Made by a program: the position numbers and the translations under genes. Of a stretch of DNA of 39,849 bases, positions 11,768-39,849 are shown in pieces (positions within the stretch are counted from its first letter, which is position 1; each line of letters opens with the position of its first letter). The DNA is taken from positions 1-39,849 of the IMG/VR virus record IMGVR_UViG_3300027852_000090. One strand, given 5' to 3'. The notes beneath the pieces are model-generated. The model was not told the origin of the DNA and did no database searches. It saw nothing but the letters and a program-made list of their open reading frames with translations. Origin of the DNA: a virus.

Positions 11768-11839
11768 TACAGGGTGGAGCAGTGGCAGCTCGATGGTTTC
11801 ATAAGCCATAGGTCGTGGGTTCGATTCCCATCCCTGTTA
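11768..11839 (+). tRNA. tRNA with CAT anticodon (Met; initiator-like features)
   Basis: Hand-folded cloverleaf. Acceptor TACAGGG/CCCTGTT with a T1:T72 mismatch; D arm GAGC-AGTGGCA-GCTC; anticodon arm ATGGT-TTCATAA-GCCAT (CAT at 11800..11802); variable AGGTC; T arm GTGGG-TTCGATT-CCCAT; discriminator A. Confidence 0.85.
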
Positions 11840-11848
11840 CATAAAAAT

Positions 11849-15475: not shown

Positions 15476-18436
15476 ATGCAATTAAAAAACTTATTAAACA
15501 TTTTTAAAGAAAAACCTGTAAATAGTCCTAGGCTTGAAGATGAGATGGGAGAAAGCGGAACTACAATGTATAATGGATTTATATCAGGCGAAGAATATAA
15601 CAGTGATTTAACTGGCACTACAAAATTTACAATATACGATAAAATGCGTAAAGGCGATGCTTCAGTTGCAACGGCACTAAAAGTGGTAAAGCTTCCATTA
15701 AGATCAGCAAATTGGTATGTAGAGCCAGCGAGTGAAGAGAAAGAAGATGTTGAGATTGCTAAATTTATAGAACACAATTTAAAAAAAGAAATGAGTATCA
15801 CTTGGGATGATTTTCTACGACAAGCACTTTTAATGTTAGATTATGGTGTTTTTATTTTTGAGAAAGTATTCACTTATGTAGAATATGAGGGGAAACAATA
15901 TATTGGTTGGAAAAAATTTGCACCAAGACATCCTCGGACAGTGCTTAAATGGGCAATTAAAGAAAATAACGATGGAATAGTCCAGCAAAAAATAGGCGGA
16001 GGCGAGGCAAATATTCCTATGGAAAAATTGCTTGTTTTTGTAAATGATAAAGAGGGAGATAATTGGGAGGGAATATCATTATTGCGTACAGCATATAAGC
16101 ATTGGTTTTTTAAAGATATTTTTGAACAAATAGATGCTATGGCTTTTGAGAGGCAAGGATTAGGTGTGCCATATTGCAAAGTTCCGAAAGGAGCGAATGC
16201 AAAAGACAAAGGTAATGCAAAAACATTAGTCAAAAATTTAAGAGCTAACGAAAAAGCTCATGTAGTTTATCCTGATGGTTGGGAAGTTGGCTTTTTAGAT
16301 ATGAATTCAAAAAGCACGCGCGATCCTGAGAAAAGTATAATGCATCATCAGAGATCAATCGTTTTAAATGTTTTGGCTCAATTTTTAATGCTGGGATCAT
16401 CTGATGGAAGTGGAAGTAGAGCATTAAGCGAAGATCATAGTGCATTATTTTTTGACAGCTTACAAGCAGTAGCAAAACAGATATTGGATGTAATAAATAA
16501 ATATGCGATTAAGCAATTAGTCGATATTAACTTCCCTGAGCTAAAAAGATATCCATTATTAAAAGTTGATGATATCGGAAGTATTGATAAAAAAGCATTT
16601 AGCGATATGATGGAAACATTGGTAGGCGAAGAACTAATCAAAAGCGATGATGAATTGGAAAATTATATCAGAAAAGAATTAGATCTCCCTGATGTACAGG
16701 AAAAAGATGAAGAAGATGAAGAAATAGAAAAATTAGATTTAGAATTAGATATGCTACAAATAGATATAGCTGGAGAGGGAATGGAAACTGAAGAATTTGA
16801 AGAAGAAGACGAGGAAGAATTAAAAGAAATGACGGAAGAAATAATTATAGATGAAGAATTAATGTTTGGAGTTAAAGGTAAACCATTAAGTGAAGAAACA
16901 AAGAAAAAAATAAGTGAAGCATTAAGAAAAAAACATGGAAGTAAAATAAAAGAAGAAAGAGGCAAAGTTGGTCAAGCTGAGGGAAATATTGCAGACGCGC
17001 GTAGAAGAATTAATGAATTAAAACAAGTTTTAAGTAATTATAAAGATAAATCTAAAGCAATTAAAGATAAGAGTTTAAAAAGAGAATTTAATAAAAAAGT
17101 AAAAGATAAAATTGAGGAAATAAAAAATCTTATAAAATCAGGGCGTACAGGAATAAAAGTTGAAAGGCAAAGAATAAGAGAAAGTAAAAAACAAATAAGA
17201 GAAGAAAAATCACAATTAAGAAAAGAGAGAAAAGAAAGAAAAATAAACAGACAAATTGACAGAGATAATGAACGGATTAAAAAATTAGAAAAATCATTGA
17301 GTAAAAAGGATTCAGACAAAGCTGATAAAATAAAAGAAAGAATAGAGAAAATAAAAGATAGAATAACTGATAATAACGAAAGACTTGAAGAATTTGAAAT
17401 GAATGAGGATGAAATAAAAAAAAAAAATTTATTAAATTTTGAAGAAGATTTTAAGCCAAGAAGAAAATTGACTTATGCTGAAAAAAAAGTAAATTTTAAT
17501 AAATTAAAAAAAGAATTTGAAAAATCCGAAAGAGAATTAGAAAAAATATTGAATAAAGCATTTAATGATCAGAAAGATGAAATTTTAGCAAATTTTCAAA
17601 AAGCAGTAAAAACAAAAGATTATAAATTAATAGAAAAAATTTCATTATCCGCACCAAAGGAATATAAAAAAGAATTACTCGCTGAAATGAAAGGATTGTA
17701 TAATTTTGGAAAAAATACAGCTTCGGCAGAAATGAAAATAATAACACCATCAACTCCAATAGAAGAAGTTGACAGATTAAAAGCAAGTGCAGAAATAATA
17801 ACAAGCGATCACGAAAATAAAATAATGACTTCCAGTAAGATAGAGGCAATCAATGATATATCCAAAGGAAAAAGCACATCAGAAACAATGAAATTGGTAA
17901 AGGCGACAATGATAACAAAGGCTAATGAGCTAGCAAAACAAACAGGCTCAATTATTGCTGGAGGAATGATAAATGACGGCCGTAGATTAGCACAACAAAC
18001 AAATAAGGCAAAACTTTATGCATTACAACGCTCCGAGCTATTAGATGATAGAACCTGTAATTTTTGTGAGAGTATGGATGGTAGAGTGATTAAAGTAAGT
18101 GATCCATGGGGGCAAGAGGGCTCGTTCCATAGCCGTTGTCGTGGAGTATGGGTTGAAATAATGAATACAGAACCTGAAAAACCATCAATAAGCGGAGTGC
18201 CAAAATCAATAGCTGAAAGATATAATAAACCTAATGACTTTAAACAATTAAAAAGTCCAGTAGTAAATAAAAATAGTTTAGCGGCTGATGAGATAAAAAA
18301 GCAATATGCAAAAGATATAAAAACAAGACAATCAAAAATAGATAAATATGAAAAAGATGGAAAATATCCAAACAGAGTATCTGCACATAAAAAAGAAATT
18401 GAGAGAATGGAAAAAGTATTAAATAAATTAAAATAA
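15476..18436 (+). CDS. Portal protein (Mu gp29/DUF935-like) fused through a long K/E-rich coiled coil to a MuF/SPP1 gp7-like head morphogenesis domain
   Basis: The N-terminus FTIYDKMRKGDASVATALKVVKLPLRSANWYVEPAS resembles the Mu-type portal signature. The C-terminus LLDDRTCNFCESMDGRVIKVSDPW...FHSRCRGVWVEI is the Phage_Mu_F motif. About 300 aa of charged low complexity lies between them (about 16660..17640). Confidence 0.7.
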   Translation: MQLKNLLNIFKEKPVNSPRLEDEMGESGTTMYNGFISGEEYNSDLTGTTKFTIYDKMRKGDASVATALKVVKLPLRSANWYVEPASEEKEDVEIAKFIEHNLKKEMSITWDDFLRQALLMLDYGVFIFEKVFTYVEYEGKQYIGWKKFAPRHPRTVLKWAIKENNDGIVQQKIGGGEANIPMEKLLVFVNDKEGDNWEGISLLRTAYKHWFFKDIFEQIDAMAFERQGLGVPYCKVPKGANAKDKGNAKTLVKNLRANEKAHVVYPDGWEVGFLDMNSKSTRDPEKSIMHHQRSIVLNVLAQFLMLGSSDGSGSRALSEDHSALFFDSLQAVAKQILDVINKYAIKQLVDINFPELKRYPLLKVDDIGSIDKKAFSDMMETLVGEELIKSDDELENYIRKELDLPDVQEKDEEDEEIEKLDLELDMLQIDIAGEGMETEEFEEEDEEELKEMTEEIIIDEELMFGVKGKPLSEETKKKISEALRKKHGSKIKEERGKVGQAEGNIADARRRINELKQVLSNYKDKSKAIKDKSLKREFNKKVKDKIEEIKNLIKSGRTGIKVERQRIRESKKQIREEKSQLRKERKERKINRQIDRDNERIKKLEKSLSKKDSDKADKIKERIEKIKDRITDNNERLEEFEMNEDEIKKKNLLNFEEDFKPRRKLTYAEKKVNFNKLKKEFEKSERELEKILNKAFNDQKDEILANFQKAVKTKDYKLIEKISLSAPKEYKKELLAEMKGLYNFGKNTASAEMKIITPSTPIEEVDRLKASAEIITSDHENKIMTSSKIEAINDISKGKSTSETMKLVKATMITKANELAKQTGSIIAGGMINDGRRLAQQTNKAKLYALQRSELLDDRTCNFCESMDGRVIKVSDPWGQEGSFHSRCRGVWVEIMNTEPEKPSISGVPKSIAERYNKPNDFKQLKSPVVNKNSLAADEIKKQYAKDIKTRQSKIDKYEKDGKYPNRVSAHKKEIERMEKVLNKLK

Positions 18437-21926: not shown

Positions 21927-22895
21927 ATGCCAAAAGTAAACGAAGTACACATAGATGCGGCGTTATCCAATGTATCACTTGGATATCATCCAAAGGGCAT
22001 GATTGCTGAGGAAATATTCCCTATTATTCCTATTAAAAAGGAAAGTGACAAATATTATATTTGGAACAAAGGGGAAGCATTCCGAGTACCTGATACTACA
22101 TTGAGAGCAGATGGTACACGATCAAAAACAATCGGATTTAGTTTAACAAATTCTACCTATACGGCAGAAGAATACGCATTAAATACCGAAGTTACTGATC
22201 GTCAAAAAGCAAATGCTGACAGTGTCATTAATTTGAGATCTGCAAAGACTCGTAGAGTTAAAGACATTTTAATGCTGGATCAAGAGATTAGAGTAGCAAG
22301 TTTATTGACTACTCAAGCAAATTGGGCTAGCACAAATCGTGTTCAATTATCAGGAACTGATCAGTGGAATAACGCAAGTTATGATTCTGATGCAGTAGAT
22401 GGATCAATTGAATATAGAATTGATACAGGTAAAGAAGCAATAAGAACACAAACAGGAGGACACGAGCCGAATAAAATCGTTATTCCATCAGCTGTAGCAA
22501 AAGTTATAAAAAGAGATGCTACTATTAGATCAATGATCAAATATACTCATGCTGATTTATTGGTAGACGGAGATTTGCCTCCTAAATTATGGGGAATGAA
22601 AGTTATTATTCCTAAAGCAAGTAAAAACACCAATGTAGAGGGAAATTCTACTCAAACATTAACAGATGTTTGGGGAAAGCATGTATTATTAATGTATGTG
22701 CCTGAAACACCTCAAATTGATGAATTATCTTGTGGATATATCTTCCGTGTAAATAACTCAGCTCATACACCATGGGGAGTTAGAACATGGAGAGAGGAAG
22801 CAGAAAAGAAAGAAGTTATTGAAAACGAAGTTTGTCAAGATGAAAAACTTGTAAGTAATGTAGCTGGATATTTTATTGAAGATGTAATTGCTTAA
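21927..22895 (+). CDS. Major capsid protein
   Basis: 322 aa, located downstream of the protease/scaffold and followed by a strong hairpin. The N-terminus ALSNVSLGYHPKGMIAEEIFPIIPIKKESDKYYIW resembles major capsid families. Confidence 0.7.
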   Translation: MPKVNEVHIDAALSNVSLGYHPKGMIAEEIFPIIPIKKESDKYYIWNKGEAFRVPDTTLRADGTRSKTIGFSLTNSTYTAEEYALNTEVTDRQKANADSVINLRSAKTRRVKDILMLDQEIRVASLLTTQANWASTNRVQLSGTDQWNNASYDSDAVDGSIEYRIDTGKEAIRTQTGGHEPNKIVIPSAVAKVIKRDATIRSMIKYTHADLLVDGDLPPKLWGMKVIIPKASKNTNVEGNSTQTLTDVWGKHVLLMYVPETPQIDELSCGYIFRVNNSAHTPWGVRTWREEAEKKEVIENEVCQDEKLVSNVAGYFIEDVIA

Positions 22896-22901
22896 CTAAT
22901 T

Positions 22902-22925
22902 GAGAGGCAGTTAATTCTGCCTCTC
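22902..22925 (+). terminator. Hairpin terminator after the capsid gene
   Basis: GAGAGGCAG-ttaatt-CTGCCTCTC is a perfect 9-bp GC-rich stem. The downstream tract ttaatcttatt is T-rich but not a clean U-run. Confidence 0.55.
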
Positions 22926-23179: not shown

Positions 23180-23650
23180 ATGCAAAATAAATTAAAAGAC
23201 AATGTCGCTCGTAAAGGTAAACTTCATATTAAGTTATTTGATAAAGACGGAAATTTAAAAGAAGAAAGAGAAATAAAAAATTTAGTTGTTTCTGTTGGCG
23301 AGGCGCATATTGCAGACCAATTAGCTTCAACACCCGGAGAAACAGCAATGGGCTATATGGCAATCGGTACAGGAACTACTGCAGCAGCAGCAGGAGATAC
23401 AACATTAGAAACAGAGCTTGATCGTAATGCATTAACATCGAGAACACAAGGAGCAGGTGGAGATGATAATGATGTTATCTATGTAGGCGATTGGGCGGCA
23501 GGAGATGGCACAGGAGCTATCACTGAGGCAGGTATTCTAAATGCAGCGGCGGCAGGCGTTCTATTAGCTAGATCCGTTTTTACAGTAATTAATAAAGGAG
23601 CAAGCGACACTCTACAAATTACTTGGACAATAACAATAGGTTCATCCTAA
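23180..23650 (+). CDS. Ala/Gly/Thr-rich putative structural protein (156 aa)
   Basis: MAIGTGTTAAAAGDTTLETELDRNAL...ITEAGILNAAAAGVLLARSVF. Composition and position suggest a virion protein; family not identified. Confidence 0.5.
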   Translation: MQNKLKDNVARKGKLHIKLFDKDGNLKEEREIKNLVVSVGEAHIADQLASTPGETAMGYMAIGTGTTAAAAGDTTLETELDRNALTSRTQGAGGDDNDVIYVGDWAAGDGTGAITEAGILNAAAAGVLLARSVFTVINKGASDTLQITWTITIGSS

Positions 23651-23690: not shown

Positions 23691-23761
23691 ATTAGATTAT
23701 TAATATCCATCTTATGCGGAATAGAACTTTTAATATATATGCATAAATCAAATTAATATAA

Positions 23762-26700
23762 ATGCTAAATAAATTTGCAAAATTAAAAGATAAAGAATAT
23801 ATCAAAAATATTAGAAAAATTGATAGTGTTCTTGTTGACGGAGATTTTGTAAAAAAATATACAGCAAAAACTAAACTTCTTAAAATATATAGTAAGAATA
23901 AAAGTATTGAGATTGAATTATTATCTCCTTATAACCAAAAACTTGGAGTAGGGAAAGAAACTTTGATTGCAGAATTAAAATTAAAAGATTGGAATAATAA
24001 AAATAATTTATTTGATGAATTAGAATTTTTTGATAGAGAAAATTTCAAGAAAAAAAACAAACGATTTATTTTTAAATATTGTGAAGAAAAAACTATTACA
24101 ATGAAACTACCAGCAGACTTTCCAACACAAGCAAAAGATAATAAAATGTTTGAAAAAGTTGTAGGGGATTGGGATAATGCTACTGAATTTACAAAATTAG
24201 ATGAATTACCTCATAAAAATATAAGAATAGGAATTTTTACAGAAACTATTTTAGGAGAAAAAATGGAATGGTTGCCGACTATTGATGGTTTTAATATACA
24301 TGAATGGGCGGCTTATGACATAACACAACTGAAGAGTTTAGAGCATGACACAGATCAAGGAAATTACAACTCGCTAGTAATGATAGACAGCACTCATTTT
24401 ATATTGGCTTATACAGGGAAAGACAATGACGGTTTTATTAAAACTTTTAGTATAGATGGAAGTTATGATATTACTGAAATAGATAGCTTGGAACACGATA
24501 CAAGTAATGCGAACGGTTACAACTCGCTAGTAATGATAAATACTACTCATTTTATTTTAGCACATAAAGGAAACGGCGATGACGGCTATATAAAAACATT
24601 CTCAATAGACGGAAGTTATGACAATATAACACAAATAGATAGCTTAGAACATGATACAATACTAAATAATTACAATTCTCTAGCAATGATAAATACTACT
24701 CATTTTATGTTAGCTTATTTTGGAAGTGGAGGAGATGGCTATATTAAAACTTTTAGTATAGATGGGAGCTATGATAACATAACACAAATAGATGTTTTAG
24801 AACATGACACAGTTCAAGGAGAACATAACTCTTTAGTAATAATAGATAGCACTCACGCTATATTGGCATATAGCGGAAGCGGTGCTGATGGTTTTATTAA
24901 AACATTTTCTATAGATGGGAGCTATGATAACATAACACAAATAGATAGCTTAGAACATGATACATTAAGCAATGTTTACAACTCGCTAGTAATGATAGAC
25001 AGCACTCATTTTATATTGGCATATACAGGGAGTAGCGATTACGGATATATTAAAACATTCAGTATAGATGGAAGTTATGATATTACTCAAGTTGATAGTT
25101 TAACTCACAACACTGCTTATACAGGTTATAATTCTTTAGTAAAAATAGATAGCACTCATTTTATGTTGGCATATAGCGGAAGCGGTGCTGATGGTTTTAT
25201 TAAAACATTTTCTATAGATGGGAGTTATAATAATATTACTGAAATAGATGTTTTAGAACATGACACAGTTGAAGGAGTTTACAATTCTTTAGTAATAATA
25301 GATAGCACTCACGCTATATTGGCTTATAGAGGAAGCGGTAGTGATGGATACATTAAAACTTTTAGTATTGAGCCATCAGTTTCAATTCCAACAGTTACTA
25401 CACAAGCAGCAACTTCTATTCAACAAACAACTTGCACAGGAAATGGAAATATAACAGCTACAGGTGGAGCAAATGCCACTCGCAGAGGTTTTTGTTATAT
25501 GACAGGAACTTCAGGAGATCCAACAACAGCAAATAGTGTAGCTTATGATGATGGAGATTATGGGACAGGAGCTTATACAAAAGGAATAACAGGACTAACT
25601 GCAGGAACTGGATATAGAGTTAGGGCTTATGCTGTTAATTCAGCTGGAACTGGATATGGAACAACTGTTCAGGTTACGACAGCTAATGCGTTTACAAAAA
25701 ATCTGTCAGAAACAATAAATTTAAATGATAATATAAGTAATGGAGTTGAAAAATTATTATCCGATAATCCGTCTTTATCCGATGCAATAAAAAATGCACC
25801 TGTAAAAATATTAAGTGATAATCCTGCAATAACTGATTCAATACAAAATAATTCAGCAAAATACTTAATAGATAATCCAAGTATATCAGATAACTTCAAT
25901 GCCTATTCAGTATATATTAGAAATTTAAGCGATAACATTTCCTTAGCAGACGCGCTAGTTAAAACAGTAAATATAAATATAGCAGAAATTTTAAATATAA
26001 CTGATGGCGGATTAATAATTTCTACCAAAAAAAATTTGGCTGATAATTTATCATTAGATGATTTGATTAGTCCATTATTAATATTGAATAAAATTATTCA
26101 GAATAATATAAATTTAGCGGATGATATTAAAAAAGATAATGCAAAAAATTTAACTGAAACAATAAACTTGTCAGATATCTTGTCAAGTATATCAACATAT
26201 TTAAAAAGCATAAGCAATATAATAACAATAGATGATTTATCTATTAAAACAATAAATAAAAATTTAATAAATTCAATTACACTCTCAGATCAATTAGGAG
26301 GAGATAAAACTAAATCTTTATTGGATAGTTTATCAATTAGCGATGAAAAAATAATCGGAATATATAAAAATTTAAGTGAAAATCCTACAATTAGTGATGA
26401 TATTAAAAAAACGATTGATAAAAATTTAAGCGAGAATTTAACTTTGTCAGATGATATTCAAGTAATAAAATCAATTTATCACGAAATAATTAATGTTGTA
26501 AGTATTAGCGATTTGTTGTATAATTCAATTAACAAGAATATAGCAGATGCATTATTAATTATTGATACTTTACAAAAGCAAACAGGAAAAAATCTTGAAG
26601 ATAATTTTTTAGTAATAGAAAGTGTAGATAAAAATATAGGCAAAAGGATAAGCGATACTACAGATTTATCAGACGACATAAAATTTGATACAAAAATATC

Positions 26701-26911
26701 AATACAAGACAGTATTTCAATCGCTGAAATTTTAGTGAAAGGATATGATAAAACATTAATTGAAGCACTATCAATAGCAGATAGTTTAGAAAAATCAATT
26801 GAACAAAGATTATATAAAAAAACAATTATATTGAATGATAGAAGAGATAAAATATTATTAATTTCTAATAATAGAAAAGATAAAATAATTTTAAATTCTA
26901 ATCCGCAATAA
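23762..26911 (+). CDS. Large modular repeat protein (1049 aa): 7 x ~50-aa repeats, an Fn3-like domain, and ~20 x ~17-aa repeats; candidate fiber or receptor-binding protein
   Basis: Single uninterrupted ORF. The repeat units were read directly from the translation (see the repeat features). The Fn3-like segment is TCTGNGNITATGGANATRRGFCYM...GITGLTAGTGYRVRAYAVNSAGTGYG. Confidence 0.8.
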   Translation: MLNKFAKLKDKEYIKNIRKIDSVLVDGDFVKKYTAKTKLLKIYSKNKSIEIELLSPYNQKLGVGKETLIAELKLKDWNNKNNLFDELEFFDRENFKKKNKRFIFKYCEEKTITMKLPADFPTQAKDNKMFEKVVGDWDNATEFTKLDELPHKNIRIGIFTETILGEKMEWLPTIDGFNIHEWAAYDITQLKSLEHDTDQGNYNSLVMIDSTHFILAYTGKDNDGFIKTFSIDGSYDITEIDSLEHDTSNANGYNSLVMINTTHFILAHKGNGDDGYIKTFSIDGSYDNITQIDSLEHDTILNNYNSLAMINTTHFMLAYFGSGGDGYIKTFSIDGSYDNITQIDVLEHDTVQGEHNSLVIIDSTHAILAYSGSGADGFIKTFSIDGSYDNITQIDSLEHDTLSNVYNSLVMIDSTHFILAYTGSSDYGYIKTFSIDGSYDITQVDSLTHNTAYTGYNSLVKIDSTHFMLAYSGSGADGFIKTFSIDGSYNNITEIDVLEHDTVEGVYNSLVIIDSTHAILAYRGSGSDGYIKTFSIEPSVSIPTVTTQAATSIQQTTCTGNGNITATGGANATRRGFCYMTGTSGDPTTANSVAYDDGDYGTGAYTKGITGLTAGTGYRVRAYAVNSAGTGYGTTVQVTTANAFTKNLSETINLNDNISNGVEKLLSDNPSLSDAIKNAPVKILSDNPAITDSIQNNSAKYLIDNPSISDNFNAYSVYIRNLSDNISLADALVKTVNINIAEILNITDGGLIISTKKNLADNLSLDDLISPLLILNKIIQNNINLADDIKKDNAKNLTETINLSDILSSISTYLKSISNIITIDDLSIKTINKNLINSITLSDQLGGDKTKSLLDSLSISDEKIIGIYKNLSENPTISDDIKKTIDKNLSENLTLSDDIQVIKSIYHEIINVVSISDLLYNSINKNIADALLIIDTLQKQTGKNLEDNFLVIESVDKNIGKRISDTTDLSDDIKFDTKISIQDSISIAEILVKGYDKTLIEALSIADSLEKSIEQRLYKKTIILNDRRDKILLISNNRKDKIILNSNPQ
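24317..25372 (+). repeat. Seven tandem ~150-bp intragenic repeats
   Basis: Consensus D(N)ITQIDSLEHDTxxxxYNSLVMIDSTHFILAYxGSGxDGYIKTFSIDGSY. Some copies share long identical DNA: gcatatagcggaagcggtgctgatggttttattaaaacattttctatagatggga occurs at about 24866 and again at about 25169. Confidence 0.9.
25700..26805 (+). repeat. About 20 degenerate tandem ~17-aa (~51-bp) repeats
   Basis: Recurrent K-N-L-S-E/D-N-x-x-L/I-S-D-x-I units, for example NLSETINLNDNI, LLSDNPSLSDAIK, ILSDNPAITDSIQ, NLSENPTISDDIKK, NLSENLTLSDDIQ. Confidence 0.8.
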
Positions 26912-26912
26912 T

Positions 26913-27878
26913 ATGTCTGTAATTTTAATAATACCAAATGACGATGTTAATAGAGGAGAAAAAACAAAAGTAGCAACAACACAAAGTGTCGTGAGTGATA
27001 CTCTTATTGTTGAAAATACAGAGGGATTATCTGTCGATGATTTTATTTGTATAGGTAGAGAGAATATGGAAACAGCGGAATTAATGCAGATTAAAAGTAT
27101 AGCTTCCGATCAAAAAACAATAACTCTAACAGTAGCGACTAAATTTATTCACAAACAATATGAGGAAGTGACTAAATTTTATTATAATCAAAGAAAAATA
27201 TATAGAAAATTATCTACTGAAAGCGCGTATACAATATTAGGAACTGAAACAATAGAAGTTGATAGACCTGATGGAACTTTATATCAAGACACATCAGGAG
27301 TAGCTACAGCATTATATAAAGCTACTTATTACAATAGCACCACAATAATAGAAACAAGCCTCACAGACGCTAAAGCAAGTTATGGGGGCGGTGGCACACA
27401 TTTTGCCGATTTAAGCGACATAAGGGAAGAAGCAGGCTTTGACAATAATGATGATATAACTGATCAGCGTTTATTTAGGCATAGAGAAAGAGCGGAGGGA
27501 GAAATTAGTGCAAGTCTCATTGCTAGATATTCAATGCCTATAACAGATAATTCATATTGGAGTAATAGTGCGGCACAAGAATTAATCAGACAAATAGTAA
27601 TGTTATTAGGTGCAGGATGGTTATTGTGGCAGGAATATCCTGATGAGAGAGGATCAGGAACAAGTAATGATGGACTTGCAAAAATAAAAGAAGCAAGAAG
27701 TATGCTAAAAGATATCAGAAATGGAAATTTGATGCTTTTAGGAAGCGATAATAATCCATTAAGTCAATTAGATACACAAAGCATAGAGGGATATCCTGAC
27801 AACAGTTTTTCTACAATACCTGACGAAAATCACGATGATGACGATAATTATATATTTCAATTAGGTAAAAGTTGGTAA
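26913..27878 (+). CDS. Putative head-tail connector/adaptor (Mu gp36/DUF1320-like C-terminal region)
   Basis: ITDQRLFRHRERAEGEISASLIARYSMPI resembles the DUF1320 signature. Located between the head and tail genes. Confidence 0.35.
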   Translation: MSVILIIPNDDVNRGEKTKVATTQSVVSDTLIVENTEGLSVDDFICIGRENMETAELMQIKSIASDQKTITLTVATKFIHKQYEEVTKFYYNQRKIYRKLSTESAYTILGTETIEVDRPDGTLYQDTSGVATALYKATYYNSTTIIETSLTDAKASYGGGGTHFADLSDIREEAGFDNNDDITDQRLFRHRERAEGEISASLIARYSMPITDNSYWSNSAAQELIRQIVMLLGAGWLLWQEYPDERGSGTSNDGLAKIKEARSMLKDIRNGNLMLLGSDNNPLSQLDTQSIEGYPDNSFSTIPDENHDDDDNYIFQLGKSW

Positions 27879-27882
27879 AAAT

Positions 27883-28302
27883 ATGAATTTAACATTTTCA
27901 ATTGAGGGAGAAGTCCAACTCGATAGAAGAATTAAAGGCCTGGCCAATGATATTAAGAATTGGAGCAAAACATTTAAAAGCACTGGAAATTATTTGAAGA
28001 AATTTTTTTCAACCGAAGTATTTCAAACAGAGGGTTCAATTATTGGCGAAAAATGGAAAACAGGAAAATATTATAATGGATTAGTTAGAACTGGAAAAAT
28101 GAGGGATAGTTTTACTAGAAAATTTGGCAAAGATTATGTATTGATAACTAACACCGCACCATATTTTAAATATCATCAAAGCAAACTTCCGAGAAAGAAA
28201 CTTCCAAGAAGAATAATGATGAAATTAGACGAAAAGAGAAGACAAAAAATAGTTAAATTATTTCAAGCAGAATTAATTAATAAAGCAAATAAAAAAATAT
28301 GA
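27883..28302 (+). CDS. Putative virion morphogenesis / tail completion protein (Mu gpG-like)
   Basis: GKMRDSFTRKFGKDYVLITNTAPYFKYHQ resembles the gpG-family pattern (...vgtn..YA..Hq.G); position supports it. Confidence 0.35.
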   Translation: MNLTFSIEGEVQLDRRIKGLANDIKNWSKTFKSTGNYLKKFFSTEVFQTEGSIIGEKWKTGKYYNGLVRTGKMRDSFTRKFGKDYVLITNTAPYFKYHQSKLPRKKLPRRIMMKLDEKRRQKIVKLFQAELINKANKKI

Positions 28303-32138: not shown

Positions 32139-33488
32139 ATGAGTAGTATAAAATATGATAGCGTGGAATTAGTGAATGCAACATATATTCCAAGATACGC
32201 TAAACACGAAACTGCACCTGAAAGAATAATTAATTCAATGAAACTGGCCAGACAAGATGGCGAGGTTATTATTGATGATACATTTGGAGTTAAGTATGTA
32301 GATATTCATGGAACACTTAAAGGATCAAGTCAAAGCGATTTAGAAAGTAAAATAGATGATTTTAAAGAATTAATAAATAGAAAAGATAAAAATTTGGATA
32401 TAGTATGGGCAGGTGGAACGAGAAGATATGTTTGTAGATCTATAAGCCATGATTTTAATCGTGATTTTTTTCATTTATTGCACTGTCCTTATAATATAAG
32501 ATTTTTAGTATTTGAGGGAATAGGAAAAGATATCACATCAACTACAGCATTAAATGATACAGGAATTACTGTTGCTTCAACTCAAAATGTTGTTAATTTT
32601 TCTGGAAGCTATAAATCAAAAGCAAAACATAAAATTACTATTACAACGAGAGGTAATGCTGATGTTTTAAAAATAGAAAATGAAGATAGTGATGAGTATA
32701 TGGAAGTCAATTTAGACGGATTTTCTAATGGAGATTATGTGGAAATAGATGAAGAAAATTTGACAGTTAAAAAAAATGGATCTACCGACATTGATTATTA
32801 TGGTAAATTTCCATCTGTTGAATTAGGAAATAATAATTTAAAACTAACTATTAGTGGCAATGGTTATACTTTAGATCAAAACTATGAGGATGGTATAATT
32901 TTGGGTAAAATTTATGATAATACTGGAACTAGTAAATTCCCAACAGATGCACAAAGTTTTATTCCAACCAAAAGCGGAAGAATAGGAAAAATTGCAACGC
33001 AAGTAGCAAAAGTTGATGGAGGAAGTTTAGCTGGTAATTTAGATTGGTATATACACCATGATGACAATAATAAACCTAGCACTGTTATTGTCGGAGGCTA
33101 TAGATACCAAATATTACAAGCAGATGTTCCTGCAAGTCCAAATGCTGCTTTTATTGATGCAGATTATACTGGTGCTCACGGAGATGCGCCATTTTTAGTA
33201 AAAGATACTAGATATTGGGTTAAATTACTTGAAACATCTATTAATACATCTGATGCAAGTAACTATTATAGCTGGGTATATGGCACTGCTTCTCCATATA
33301 CTGATGGGAAATCTATGGCGAGAGGTAACAGTAGCGAAAATTGGGAAGATGGTTCTTCTGAAGCTGATGAATCAAGTGGTATTTCACAAGGTAATTTTGA
33401 TAAAAATTTTAAAATATATATAGGCGATGGAAATTCTCCTAGTTGGTCTGTTATTTGGAATATTACTTATATCAAAAAATATTTATAA
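32139..33488 (+). CDS. Putative distal tail protein (Dit-like) with a C-terminal extension
   Basis: First gene after the tape measure. I prefer ATG 32139 (MSSIKYDS) to TTG 32127. Confidence 0.4.
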   Translation: MSSIKYDSVELVNATYIPRYAKHETAPERIINSMKLARQDGEVIIDDTFGVKYVDIHGTLKGSSQSDLESKIDDFKELINRKDKNLDIVWAGGTRRYVCRSISHDFNRDFFHLLHCPYNIRFLVFEGIGKDITSTTALNDTGITVASTQNVVNFSGSYKSKAKHKITITTRGNADVLKIENEDSDEYMEVNLDGFSNGDYVEIDEENLTVKKNGSTDIDYYGKFPSVELGNNNLKLTISGNGYTLDQNYEDGIILGKIYDNTGTSKFPTDAQSFIPTKSGRIGKIATQVAKVDGGSLAGNLDWYIHHDDNNKPSTVIVGGYRYQILQADVPASPNAAFIDADYTGAHGDAPFLVKDTRYWVKLLETSINTSDASNYYSWVYGTASPYTDGKSMARGNSSENWEDGSSEADESSGISQGNFDKNFKIYIGDGNSPSWSVIWNITYIKKYL

Positions 33489-33490
33489 TT

Positions 33491-34678
33491 ATGTCTAAAC
33501 AAATACAAATAAAATCGTTTAATACAAGTGGTGTATTTGTTAAAAATATAACAGATGCAACATTTGAAGAAATAACAAAAGTAATTAATGGAGGTATTGG
33601 AAATCTTAGCATTAAAATAGCAAGAAAAATTGATGAATTTGATACTGACGGAGATTTAACATTGGGAAATAAAATTGAAATATGGATCTATGATGAGGAT
33701 AGTGGTAATGACGGAGTAAATATATATAAAGGATGGATAGAGCAACAGAATCCATATATTGATGGAGGAATAGAATATGTTGATATATTGTGTGCGAGTT
33801 TAATCTCTAAAATGAAAAATGATATATTAAAAAATTCAACACAAACTACATTATTTACTATTGCAACAGCAGGATTAACTACTACTTCAGCAAGTATTAC
33901 TGCTGCCGAAATAGCTGATGTAGTAAAAGCTACAATAGATTTGTTTAAAGAAAATAATAGTAATATTGATATAAATTATAATCCAGCAGGAACTGATTTA
34001 ATTGAAGATACAACAAAAGAAATGCAATATACTTTTGAGGCAATGACATACTTTGATGTAATAGAAAAATGCAGACAAATAGCTCCAGAAAATACATATT
34101 GGAAAATTACTGCAAATGGAAATATATATTTTACTATTCCGTCAAATGAAGCAGATCATGTTTTTACAATTGGAAAAAATATAAAAAAAATAGAAGCAAG
34201 TAAAAGTTTAGATAGCGTTAAAAATATTATTCTAATTTGGGATGGTCAACATTTAGGACTTTATACAAAATACGAAGATGCTACATCAGTTAGTAGTTAT
34301 GGCAGGAGAGTTAAGCAATTAATTGATAGTAATATAAAAGATCAAGACACAATGGATAATATAGGGAATGCTTTTATTGAAGAAAATAAAAATCCAAAAG
34401 TAAGAATCACTATTGAAATAATTGATAATAATGAAAATGATAAAGGATATGACATTGAAAGCATAGAAGCAGGGGATACATGCAGAATTGTAGGAATTGC
34501 TGACGACAATGATATTTTTGGAAACAATATGATAATTAAAGAAGTTATATGGAAATTAGATAAAGCAATATTAATAATTGAAACAGAAAAAGATTTTAAT
34601 ATTGATAGATATATATTAAATATTGAAAAAGATTTAATACAAGAAAAAAAATTTGGTATACCTGAAACTTATTCTTAA
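33491..34678 (+). CDS. Putative tail-associated / baseplate hub protein (Tal-like)
   Basis: Second gene after the tape measure. I prefer ATG 33491 (MSKQIQIKSF); the track start 33443 overlaps the upstream gene. Confidence 0.35.
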   Translation: MSKQIQIKSFNTSGVFVKNITDATFEEITKVINGGIGNLSIKIARKIDEFDTDGDLTLGNKIEIWIYDEDSGNDGVNIYKGWIEQQNPYIDGGIEYVDILCASLISKMKNDILKNSTQTTLFTIATAGLTTTSASITAAEIADVVKATIDLFKENNSNIDINYNPAGTDLIEDTTKEMQYTFEAMTYFDVIEKCRQIAPENTYWKITANGNIYFTIPSNEADHVFTIGKNIKKIEASKSLDSVKNIILIWDGQHLGLYTKYEDATSVSSYGRRVKQLIDSNIKDQDTMDNIGNAFIEENKNPKVRITIEIIDNNENDKGYDIESIEAGDTCRIVGIADDNDIFGNNMIIKEVIWKLDKAILIIETEKDFNIDRYILNIEKDLIQEKKFGIPETYS

Positions 34679-37368: not shown

Positions 37369-38013
37369 ATGAAAATACCAAAAATTATTCATCAAATTTG
37401 GGTAGGAGATGAGGACAAAAAACCTTCTAAATTAATGCGAGGATGGAAAGAAAAACATCCTGATTATACATTTTTTGAATGGAACAATAAAACTGTAGCA
37501 GAATATGATTTTATATTAAGAGATCAGATTAATCAAATGTTTAATATAGGGAGATATCACGGAGTGGCTGATCTAGTTAGATATGAAGTATTATATAATT
37601 ATGGAGGATTTGTAGCACCAGCAGATTCAGAATGTTTAAATGCCATAGATGATTTATTGGATTTAGGTTTTTTTGCTTGCTATGAAAATGAGGAATATAC
37701 TAAAGATTTGGTATCACCGCATATAGGAACTTATCCTAAAAATCCATTTATAGGAAAAATAATTGATGAATTAATATTAAAAGGAAATGTATTAACTAAA
37801 GAACCATGGCGCGAAACTGGTAATTTATTTTTAACAGAGATGCTAAAAAAACATAAAAATACAGAAATTATGATATTGCCAAGTTATACTTTTATCCCGG
37901 AACATCGGACAGGAATAATTTATACAGGAAATGGAAAAGTATATGCTAAACATTATTGGGGAACTACTAAAAATATATATAATAAATTAAGTGAAGATAA
38001 TAAAATAATATAA
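37369..38013 (+). CDS. Glycosyltransferase with DXD-type sugar-binding region (GT32 / Gly_transf_sug-like)
   Basis: IPKIIHQIWVGDEDKKPS...W...HPDYTFFEW...ADLVRYEVLYNYGGFVAPADSE follows the Och1/TcdA-like GT32 N-terminal signature. Confidence 0.7.
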   Translation: MKIPKIIHQIWVGDEDKKPSKLMRGWKEKHPDYTFFEWNNKTVAEYDFILRDQINQMFNIGRYHGVADLVRYEVLYNYGGFVAPADSECLNAIDDLLDLGFFACYENEEYTKDLVSPHIGTYPKNPFIGKIIDELILKGNVLTKEPWRETGNLFLTEMLKKHKNTEIMILPSYTFIPEHRTGIIYTGNGKVYAKHYWGTTKNIYNKLSEDNKII

Positions 38014-38457: not shown

Positions 38458-39021
38458 ATGAAAAAAGATATTCACCAAGAGCGATATATTGGACATCAAA
38501 ATAAAAAGAAAAAACAATTAATTGAAATATTAGAGAATAGAGTAAGTCAAAGAATTTTTAATAATGAGCCAATAACAGAGCAGGAAATTAAAAAAATAAC
38601 TCATTATATGGCACAAGTTCCTAACTCTTGTAGCAGGCAAGCAATTTACTCTACCATAATTGATGATCGAGTAAGCAAAGAATTATTAGGAGGAATACTT
38701 GTTGGAGGAGTAGGTTGGATACATAGATCTGATAAAATTATATTATTATTTGCTAATAATTTAGCTTATAAATCTGAAAATGAAATAACTTTTATGCCAT
38801 ATCTTGATGCTGGTGCGGTATTAATGGCTGGTTATTTAATATGCGAGGAAATGAATATAGGTGTATGTTTTGTAAATCCAAATATTCGAAAAGAATTTAA
38901 AAAATATTTTATAGAAAATTTTAATAAAGGAGAGTTGATATTCTGTGGAGCATTAGCGATTGGGAAATATGATAAAAAAGCAAAAAAAACAATTAAAAAA
39001 AATAATATATTAATTCAATAA
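38458..39021 (+). CDS. Nitroreductase-family protein
   Basis: LENRVSQRIFNNEPITEQEIKKITHYMAQVPNSCSRQAIY fits the nitroreductase N-terminal pattern (R-x-S-x-R-x-F...i..e.l..il.....aPS..n.Q). 187 aa. Confidence 0.6.
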   Translation: MKKDIHQERYIGHQNKKKKQLIEILENRVSQRIFNNEPITEQEIKKITHYMAQVPNSCSRQAIYSTIIDDRVSKELLGGILVGGVGWIHRSDKIILLFANNLAYKSENEITFMPYLDAGAVLMAGYLICEEMNIGVCFVNPNIRKEFKKYFIENFNKGELIFCGALAIGKYDKKAKKTIKKNNILIQ

Positions 39022-39341: not shown

Positions 39342-39849
39342 ATGTTAAAAACAAAAAAAGCTGTCAAGAAAAAGACAGCTACAACAAAAAAATCAATTGG
39401 GAAAAAGAAAAAAAGGTCGATTAAAAAAAATAATAATTTAATGCTCGTTCATAATCCAACGAACAAAGATCAAGAATTTTTTGTCGCTAGTGAATTAGCT
39501 GATGATGCCGCAATAGAGGCGGAATTATTAGGGCAAGCAATGGAACATTATATCTACCAATTTTCTAGTAAAGGAAATATTGTAACAGGATTGAGTGTAG
39601 CTGGAGTTAATGAAATATCTCGCAAAATGACAAAAAATCCTAAATCAGGAACTAAAATAAGAATTATACCTGAAAGTGTTAAAGTAGAAAGAGATATTGT
39701 TATGAACGAACAAAAAGGAATGCAAGTAACAGTAATTGCCGAAAATATGGTAACTGGAGAAACTGGGATTGGAATTAAATTTGAAACATACGAAAATATT
39801 GGGAGGAAAGGAAAATATCCAAACACTTTTGTTGTCGAGAAAGCATTAA
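39342..39849 (+). CDS. N-terminal part of the junction-spanning ORF (continues at 1..504); putative SSAP-like recombinase
   Basis: ATG 39342 opens a frame with no stop to the window end (MLKTKKAVKKKTATTKKSIGKKKKRS...). The ORF track missed it because it is open-ended. The minus-strand ORF 39554..39826 is its shadow. Confidence 0.6.
   Translation, partial: MLKTKKAVKKKTATTKKSIGKKKKRSIKKNNNLMLVHNPTNKDQEFFVASELADDAAIEAELLGQAMEHYIYQFSSKGNIVTGLSVAGVNEISRKMTKNPKSGTKIRIIPESVKVERDIVMNEQKGMQVTVIAENMVTGETGIGIKFETYENIGRKGKYPNTFVVEKAL
39723..39849. repeat. Terminal direct repeat, copy 2 (identical to 1..127)
   Basis: See copy 1. Confidence 0.95.

Follow-up and report, generated by a model that had tools for sequence, protein, structure and literature searches.

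A candidate modular fibre with a predicted beta-propeller head, encoded between the capsid and head-tail adaptor genes of an uncultured phage

The subject of this report is a gene for a protein of 1049 amino acids (aa), here called the fibre gene, in the virus record IMGVR_UViG_3300027852_000090 of IMG/VR, of which we analysed positions 1 to 39,849 (39,849 nucleotides (nt), the window in what follows). The window is a full contig that closes on itself, with a 127-nt direct repeat at 1-127 and 39723-39849, and because of this terminal overlap it is a complete genome, of about 39.7 kb and 28.5% G+C. An initial annotation, made from the sequence itself, had drawn attention to this gene; both the open reading frame (ORF) and its placement between capsid and connector genes are as described there, with the capsid gene upstream and the adaptor-like and Neck1 genes downstream (Table 1). 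Its product consists of five parts, an N-terminal domain, a block of seven repeats, an Fn3-like domain, a shaft and a C-terminal tail. In our view the product belongs to a known general kind of fibre protein, though its parts are undescribed.

Table 1. Positions in the window of the fibre gene, of its parts and of the other features named in the text
Feature	Position	Strand	Residues	Remarks
Fibre gene, whole ORF	23762..26911	+	1049 aa	stop codon included
N-terminal domain	23762..24316	+	aa 1-185	all-beta in the AlphaFold2 prediction
Seven blades	24317..25381	+	aa 186-540	four predicted strands per unit
Blade 1	24317-24466	+	aa 186-235
Blade 2	24467-24619	+	aa 236-286
Blade 3	24620-24772	+	aa 287-337
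Blade 4	24773-24925	+	aa 338-388
Blade 5	24926-25078	+	aa 389-439
Blade 6	25079-25228	+	aa 440-489
Blade 7	25229-25381	+	aa 490-540
59-nt exact tract	24863..24921 = 25166-25224	+		encodes LAYSGSGADGFIKTFSIDGS in blades 4 and 6
Fn3-like beta sandwich	25382..25696	+	aa 541-645	Thr/Gly-rich; swap boundary at its N-terminal edge
Shaft	25697..26800	+	aa 646-1013	about 20 units of 18 aa; phrog_12240
C-terminal tail	26801..26908	+	aa 1014-1049	three short repeats, 33-nt tandem repeat
Portal gene	15476-18436		986 aa	portal fused to MuF-like minor head domain
Major capsid protein gene	21927..22895	+		phrog_1005, E 4e-71
Terminator-like hairpin	22902-22925			9 pairs, 6 of them G-C
156-aa protein gene	23180..23650	+	156 aa	phrog_5417, E 2e-30; conserved fibre partner
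Adaptor-like gene	26913..27878	+	321 aa	directly 3' of the fibre gene; Mu Gp36-like head-tail adaptor at aa 179-282
Neck1 gene	27883-28302			after the adaptor-like gene
Tape-measure gene	start 30530			fibre gene 3.6 kb upstream
Tal-like gene	33443-34678
tRNA-Met gene	11768-11840			anticodon CAT; a single tRNA-Met gene
Glycosyltransferase gene	37369-38013			DXD type
Nitroreductase-family gene	38458-39021

The initial annotation had seen seven near-identical units of 50 aa in the repeat block and had thought a seven-bladed propeller plausible. The seven tandem units are there, with the consensus then given (..ITqidsLeHdT....yNSLv.IdsTHfiLAy.Gsg.dG.IKTFSIdgSy), but near-identity is too strong a term for units of 50 or 51 aa that share 61-78% of their residues and 66-83% of their DNA; Tandem Repeats Finder describes the block as a period of 153 nt in 6.6 copies, and also of 306 nt in 3.3 copies, and variability within a blade is greatest in the 4-5 residues following a conserved HDT. 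As to the fold, an AlphaFold2 model of aa 1-650 made with a 60-sequence alignment has a mean pLDDT (predicted local distance difference test score) of 88.8, rising to 97-98 within the blade repeats, and places 28 strands in aa 188-535, four in each of seven units. We are therefore confident in the prediction that the repeat block is a seven-bladed beta-propeller. In front of it lies a predicted all-beta domain (pLDDT mostly 78-96), which is shared by 12 of the 120 best matches, in each of them directly before the propeller, and for which neither sequence nor profile searches gave a PDB or Pfam match.

When the predicted propeller is compared by Foldseek with the PDB, generic seven-bladed propellers are returned (Seh1, Sec12, LGI1 EPTP and the Photorhabdus lectin PLL4), with target-normalised template modelling (TM) scores of 0.69-0.74, root mean square deviations (rmsd) of about 4-5 A and 8-13% identity; against predicted viral structures, many uncharacterised phage and giant-virus propeller proteins are returned at 9-15% identity. 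By sequence no named family of Pfam, NCBIfam or the PDB fits, in agreement with the earlier remark that the repeat is not WD40, Kelch, YVTN or FG-GAP. Profiles of WD40, Kelch, YVTN/Lactonase, FG-GAP, RCC1 and BNR/Asp-box give no match at curated thresholds, Pfam holds no propeller family that matches the fibre protein at E <= 1, NCBIfam holds none either, and searches of the PDB by sequence or profile yielded nothing usable for the whole protein, for the propeller profile or for that of the N-terminal domain. Some homologues have a marginal match to PF10282 (Lactonase), which reaches 28.3 bits only as a sum, with no single stretch behind it. The propeller lacks Asp-box, FRIP and WD motifs and has one Arg in 355 aa and no Trp.

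Exact identity of more than 50 nt between two pairs of repeat copies had been taken as a sign of recent intragenic duplication or recombination. The first of these pairs (24863 vs 25166) is indeed identical over 59 nt, the second (about 24786 vs 25242) over 29 nt only, and the idea of a recent duplication turns out to be mostly wrong. Synonymous divergence (dS) between blades is largely saturated, from 0.8 to >2, with non-synonymous divergence (dN) of 0.14-0.33, and lower dS values, of 0.37-0.55, occur only in the pairs 1/5, 4/6, 4/7 and 6/7. The 59-nt tract, which gives blades 4 and 6 an identical stretch of 20 residues, is best read as a gene-conversion tract; further exact tracts measure 45 nt (24364/24976) and 38 nt (24830/25286). 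The blades thus appear to be old, with patchy gene conversion in a few pairs and short tracts. Dating the duplication by the position of orthologous blades was given up, since the blades are all at about the same distance from one another and no positional orthology exists with the blades of homologues. Saturated dS, low dN and the lack of positional orthology together suggest that selection holds every blade near one consensus.

An Fn3-like module does follow the repeats, as reported, and its label has three results behind it. AlphaFold2 predicts a beta sandwich at aa 544-639 (pLDDT 60-92) with seven strands (544-551, 557-565, 574-581, 593-596, 603-610, 617-626 and 629-639), and while the protein itself scores 15.4 bits against Pfam fn3 (PF00041), below the cut-off of 25, the same domain reaches 29.2 bits in P0002 and 53 bits in P0084 (P-numbers are homologous proteins and L-numbers contigs or loci of relatives). 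In the shaft, the earlier description of some twenty 17-aa units in an array of about 370 aa needs a change of period only. The array has 368 aa, into which a hidden Markov model of the unit and the reading frame place about 20 units with the consensus K-N-L-S-D-N-[ILP]-S/T-L-S-D-x-I-x-K-x-I-x, and self-identity is 23.5% at a lag of 18 against about 5-13% at other lags. The profile of phrog_12240 matches aa 814-941 (E 5.7e-13), and all shaft relatives match it too.

The hydrophobicity spectrum of the shaft has one dominant peak, at 3.54 residues (power 183, against a maximum of 108 in shuffles), and a weak beta period near 2.0. This points to a helical shaft rather than a beta-helix, made perhaps of 18/5 helices or of a helix-turn repeat as in the phi29 stem (PMC6542822); the Pro found at position 7 of four of the units speaks against a single uninterrupted helix. 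The tail (KTIILNDRRD / KILLISNNRKD / KIILNSNPQ) is the best-conserved end of the protein, its last 48 aa being 61-88% identical to those of the sister phage described below. Many propeller and shaft proteins (P0002, P0003, P0005, P0012, P0121) likewise end in two or three short tandem strands, and in the propeller proteins of split loci these ends read IKSINGVAIAD/IKSINGVVIGD/IKQFNGVSNVS. Such strands may be docking strands.

Comparison of loci indicates that two genes which other phages keep apart have been fused in frame in the fibre gene. In L001, a 57-kb phage contig, P0005 comprises the N-terminal domain, seven blades and the Fn3-like domain, and the middle of a separate protein encoded after it (992 aa) matches our shaft (aa 632-973). 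A propeller protein followed by a separate shaft protein is also found in L013, L016 and L020, where the match covers aa 601-1009 or 632-973. In P0122, a shaft protein of 468 aa with a Neck1 gene behind it, the start of the protein coincides exactly with the start of the shaft. A second, independent pair of fused and split forms is provided by P0021 (1435 aa, in L008), which also has the propeller, and the 359-aa and 1019-aa genes of L018, the C-terminal region of P0021 being homologous to the 1019-aa gene that lies 3' of the stand-alone propeller.

How the variable part of the gene changes can be followed in a clade of relatives of 37-41 kb, found through a terminase search. They share the order cement, capsid, 71-aa, 156-aa, [variable], adaptor-like, Neck1, 157-aa and tail tube genes, complete in L034 and L035, and in L037 as well, with the last fetched ORF unmatched; in L032 and L036 the order holds up to the end of the contig. 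The variable part is the fused 1049-aa gene in the window. In the sister phage (L032/L034, capsid protein 90% identical) it is an unrelated Gly-rich gene of 428 aa and a shaft gene of 544 aa, in L035 (capsid 75%) a 241-aa gene and a shaft gene of 1027 aa, and in L037 (capsid 79%) a shaft-containing gene of 838 aa with three small genes. Closest to the window is L114 (93% identity in both the terminase and the capsid protein), where an unrelated region of about 395 aa is joined to the Fn3-like domain also seen in the window (79% identical to aa 539-580); after this the contig ends. This junction places the exchange boundary just N-terminal of the Fn3-like domain.

Downstream of that boundary the shaft is 54% identical to the separate shaft gene of the sister phage, which has about four extra units; identity is 33-42% over the first 200 aa and 57-88% over the last 200 aa, tail included, and the genes flanking the variable part are 74-90% identical. 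A conserved, probably virion-proximal part and an exchangeable distal part, as expected of a tail fibre, are both found with the polarity reversed, the C-terminus being conserved and the N-terminus exchanged. Duplication or recombination of the repeats had earlier been suggested as a possible route to rapid variation, and the comparison shows another route, namely the exchange of the whole N-terminal head among close relatives.

The small gene upstream accompanies the shaft well beyond this clade. Its 156-aa product is 82-92% identical in sister phages and relatives and has 178 relatives in IMG/VR; in L001, L003, L013 and L018 the gene adjoins shaft, propeller or fibre-type genes. Among 80 loci fetched, 40 hold a shaft-like ORF, which in 35 of the 80 lies within four ORFs of the 156-aa gene, and in eight of the nine loci with an adaptor-like gene the last sizeable ORF before it is the shaft. 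The gene that directly follows the 156-aa gene is otherwise very diverse. Two deposited phages also have the 156-aa gene, preceding large proteins, and one of the two records calls it a tail fibre protein. Searched by itself, the 156-aa protein matched nothing but designed armadillo repeats, and we treat these matches as spurious. Taken together, the conserved core of the fibre module consists of shaft plus tail and the 156-aa gene. It is encoded in the interval from the capsid gene to that of the head-tail adaptor and is shared by uncultured phages of a broad group, siphovirus-like and with heads of Mu type.

Other features of the genome may be mentioned more briefly. A gene for a cement protein (PF09956) lies in the head module near the fibre gene. 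Right after the capsid gene there is a strong terminator-like hairpin, given which the fibre module 3' of it may be expressed at a lower level; that hairpin apart, a promoter and terminator scan around the fibre gene gave nothing better than shuffles, and in the two places checked, before the fibre gene (23700-23761) and before the next gene (26895-26912), no Shine-Dalgarno-like sequence was found. The first 178 aa of the adaptor-like protein are without any match and could be an extra exposed neck domain. The portal and MuF-like parts, fused in the window, are two genes in L114 (780 + 294 aa), where a methyltransferase gene is inserted before the portal. Three further genes, for tRNA-Met, a glycosyltransferase and a nitroreductase-family protein, are listed in Table 1.

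The propeller repeat is far more widespread than the phages discussed so far. An exhaustive HMMER search over 1.84 billion cluster representatives found it in 1,593 proteins at E <= 0.001, 361 of them at E <= 1e-30, some with several propellers; a protein scan of the species genomes gave nothing, a degenerate DNA pattern then found five genomes, and two alignments were excluded as too diverse. The carriers are several phage lineages and proteins of Patescibacteria and Omnitrophota, the cellular ones including proteins from metagenome-assembled genomes (MAGs) of Candidatus Paceibacterota, Falkowbacteria, Omnitrophota and Peptococcaceae. In cells the family occurs in large multi-domain proteins, and some cellular carriers also have a type IX secretion sorting domain, which indicates export. 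A tblastn search of 50,697 deposited phage genomes gave no match for the fibre protein or for the shaft relative P0121, and for the capsid protein identity to these phages does not exceed 28-31%. In a T4-like contig (L011 9304-12715) a propeller protein of 904 aa is encoded directly after a gp15-like neck (tail-completion) gene and before a gene for a TnsA-like endonuclease.

How are these observations to be interpreted? We think it probable, on balance, that the fibre gene encodes a modular fibre, or adhesin, with a virion-proximal shaft at its C-terminus and an exchangeable propeller head that binds a ligand. The particle would incorporate shaft and tail along with the 156-aa protein; the location of their genes, with the capsid gene on one side and the adaptor gene on the other, makes the head or neck the probable site. 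The N-terminal domain, propeller and Fn3-like domain would form the distal head. Since the blades are held near one consensus, the propeller probably offers several equivalent sites, as multivalent propeller lectins do, and would bind, at low affinity but high avidity, a repetitive ligand such as a polysaccharide at a surface; judging from the model and the repeats, the head is probably glycan-binding. Through this head the phage would make its first, reversible contact, either with the envelope of the host or with the surface on which the host lives, and specificity would shift through swapping of the head cassette.

As to the site on the particle, the gene order around T4 wac is one of the two models that we used. 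By analogy of position with this gene and with that of phi29 gp8.5 (PMC6542822), a head- or neck-mounted fibre is favoured. In the window and its clade and in L008 and L009 the gene lies in the head module, with the capsid gene in front of it and the connector genes behind, and in the window, L008 and L009, whose capsids belong to different families, a protein with the N-terminal domain and propeller is encoded after the capsid gene (directly so in L009) or directly before the head-tail adaptor gene (L008). The suggestion of the initial annotation, a head fibre or an atypically placed receptor-binding protein, therefore stays plausible, and its remark that no obvious receptor-binding protein follows the Tal-like gene was correct: after that gene come only those for a membrane protein of 63 aa and a protein of 315 aa with unknown function, together with small genes, and there is no tail-fibre gene among them. 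The fibre gene itself does not lie downstream of the tape-measure, Dit and Tal genes, as a siphovirus tail-fibre gene would.

Several facts weigh against a fibre mounted on the head or neck by its C-terminus. In L019 the same propeller family is encoded after the distal tail genes, and in L015 it lies amid tail-fibre-like genes, so that gene position does not fix the site on the particle, and in phages of the L001 type the module lies upstream of the terminase gene and not between capsid and adaptor genes. A variable N-terminus with a conserved C-terminus is, if we read the alignments correctly, the reverse of what classical tail fibres have. The AlphaFold2 model of the shaft as a monomer (aa 642-1049, four-sequence alignment) has a pLDDT of 31.5 and was not used for a fold search. 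Finally, the profile of the 156-aa protein has a weak match (E 0.13), kept as a lead, to a baseplate hub domain of HFTV1 (PMC12494034).

It could thus be argued that the protein is the main receptor-binding protein, situated on the tail tip or baseplate, and that its gene merely lies apart from the other tail genes. The loci of L015 and L019 and the baseplate-hub match would agree with this, as would a weak match of the 156-aa protein to phrog_4176 ('tail fiber protein'), the tail-fibre-type N-terminus that the gene after the 156-aa gene often has in other phages, and the lack, in a complete genome of 39.7 kb, of any gene for a fibre or spike downstream of those for Dit and the Tal-like protein. 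We nevertheless hold a tail location to be unlikely: distant lineages have the module in the interval from capsid to adaptor, where the shaft gene immediately precedes that of the adaptor, and the Dit protein, at 453 aa, would be long enough to carry a binding domain of its own.

We consider it very unlikely that the propeller acts enzymatically, as a sialidase- or glycosidase-type depolymerase of polysaccharides, and not as a lectin-like binder. Depolymerases are frequent on phage fibres, and the Foldseek matches include sialidases and a pseudaminidase, but these have rmsd values of 13-18 A, the sialidase/GH33 marks are missing (Asp-box and FRIP absent, a single Arg, no Trp), Pfam gives no glycosidase match, and seven equally conserved blades are ill-suited to a single central active site. 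A capsid decoration protein that stabilises or disperses particles without a specific ligand would suit a gene in the head module beside that of a cement protein; it would leave unexplained both the wholesale exchange of heads at 90-93% capsid identity and a shaft of 400 aa, and we find it highly improbable. Hardly credible, lastly, is an assembly artefact in the repeat block or the fusion, such as the contigs L013 and L020 might bring to mind (they are 99.6-99.96% identical outside the block, yet have 6 and 2 blades, and a 145-nt exact repeat in L013 could collapse), because the longest exact repeat in the window, 59 nt, is well below the k of 127 which the 127-nt self-overlap of the contig suggests as assembler setting, and most homologues have seven blades as well, the frame being open throughout the ORF and L114 showing the same kind of junction between head and Fn3-like domain; the seven-copy block of the window is thus in all likelihood sound. 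In L013 (8001-9548) and L020 (8001-8951) the difference lies in blade number only, with the junction in register; we do not accept it as a real polymorphism, given that the 145-nt repeat permits collapse.

Where such a head came from is a more speculative matter. Two cellular proteins, P0017 and P0008, have an N-terminal domain and propeller 57-62% identical to ours. The first is encoded on a Patescibacteria contig with HSP70 and histidine-kinase genes. The second (L010 148-2956, 57% identity over 566 aa) overlaps a prepilin-type N-methylation gene, a context that hints at a pilus-linked adhesin, and its contig also carries DnaB, ribosomal protein L21 and RNase Y. Because of this identity to proteins of Patescibacteria contigs, and of the prepilin-type gene that one of them overlaps, it can be imagined that the host belongs to the Patescibacteria (candidate phyla radiation, CPR) or is a similar ultra-small cell, and that the phage took a surface or pilus adhesin of the host lineage and displays it on its head or neck fibre; we regard this as quite doubtful. 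A host call from the terminase search was dropped, the MAG names being inconsistent. There is an analogy, and nothing closer, with PilX2 of Saccharibacteria strain TM7x, a seven-bladed propeller that is carried on a surface appendage of a Patescibacteria cell and is needed for host binding (PMC11623550): PilX2 has RCC1 repeats, for which the fibre protein gives no match.

A modular fibre of this design would have partial counterparts among known phages. Like our gene, that of phi29 gp8.5 (3QC7, 6QYY) adjoins the capsid gene and encodes a stem of short repeats. The two proteins have no sequence similarity, and gp8.5 has an N-terminal beta-barrel base as its anchor and a small C-terminal tip, whereas our protein has its conserved end at the C-terminus and a propeller as head. 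For phi29 the fibre is dispensable, and the interaction of particles with host cell walls is more ordered when gp8.5 is present (PMC6542822, PMC7602432). T4 Hoc and T5 pb10 share with the fibre protein exposed domains of Ig/Fn3 type on the particle, which are thought to serve adhesion to glycans or cells and not stability (PMC7602432); they are small monomers on hexamer centres, without shaft or propeller, and no homology was detected.

Virion propellers are also known from phi11 Gp45 (5EFV, five blades), PRD1 P2 (1N7U) and phiKZ gp131C (4GBF, seven blades), all three tail or baseplate proteins with no sequence relation to ours and absent from the best 50 Foldseek matches. Their blades are not known to be near-consensus repeats. 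In all of them the propeller serves as a ligand-binding platform (PMC6115969). Closer in blade number and fold are the PLL lectins of Photorhabdus (for example 8Q82, TM 0.72), although at 8% identity there is no relation by sequence and the likeness is one of predicted fold only. In the PLL family repetitive blades give several sugar sites. The shaft and the 156-aa protein, for their part, belong by profile score to phrog_12240 and phrog_5417. We know of no function or structure described for either family, and that the two are linked and precede the adaptor gene is, to our knowledge, documented only here.

Exchangeable binding heads on modular fibres are the usual phage route to altered adhesion, and in this sense the kind of system is familiar. 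What is new is, first, the unnamed propeller repeat family itself, with some 1,600 clusters in phages and in proteins of candidate phyla. Second, two PHROG families of unknown function (5417 and 12240) turn out to be a linked fibre module in the capsid-adaptor interval of many uncultured phages. Third, the module is variable at its N-terminus and conserved at its C-terminus, the opposite of textbook tail fibres. Fourth, phages with capsid proteins 75-93% identical provide a natural head-swap series, which marks exact fusion points that could be used for display engineering or for retargeting of fibres. The cellular homologues add a weak but testable host clue for a phage clade without a cultured member; if the phage did take its head from an adhesin of its host, the particle would stick to the surfaces to which the host cell sticks. 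On that same reading the propeller would be a new lectin-like family with seven equivalent sites, and phrog_5417 and phrog_12240 would together make up an undescribed, widespread fibre system mounted by its C-terminus.

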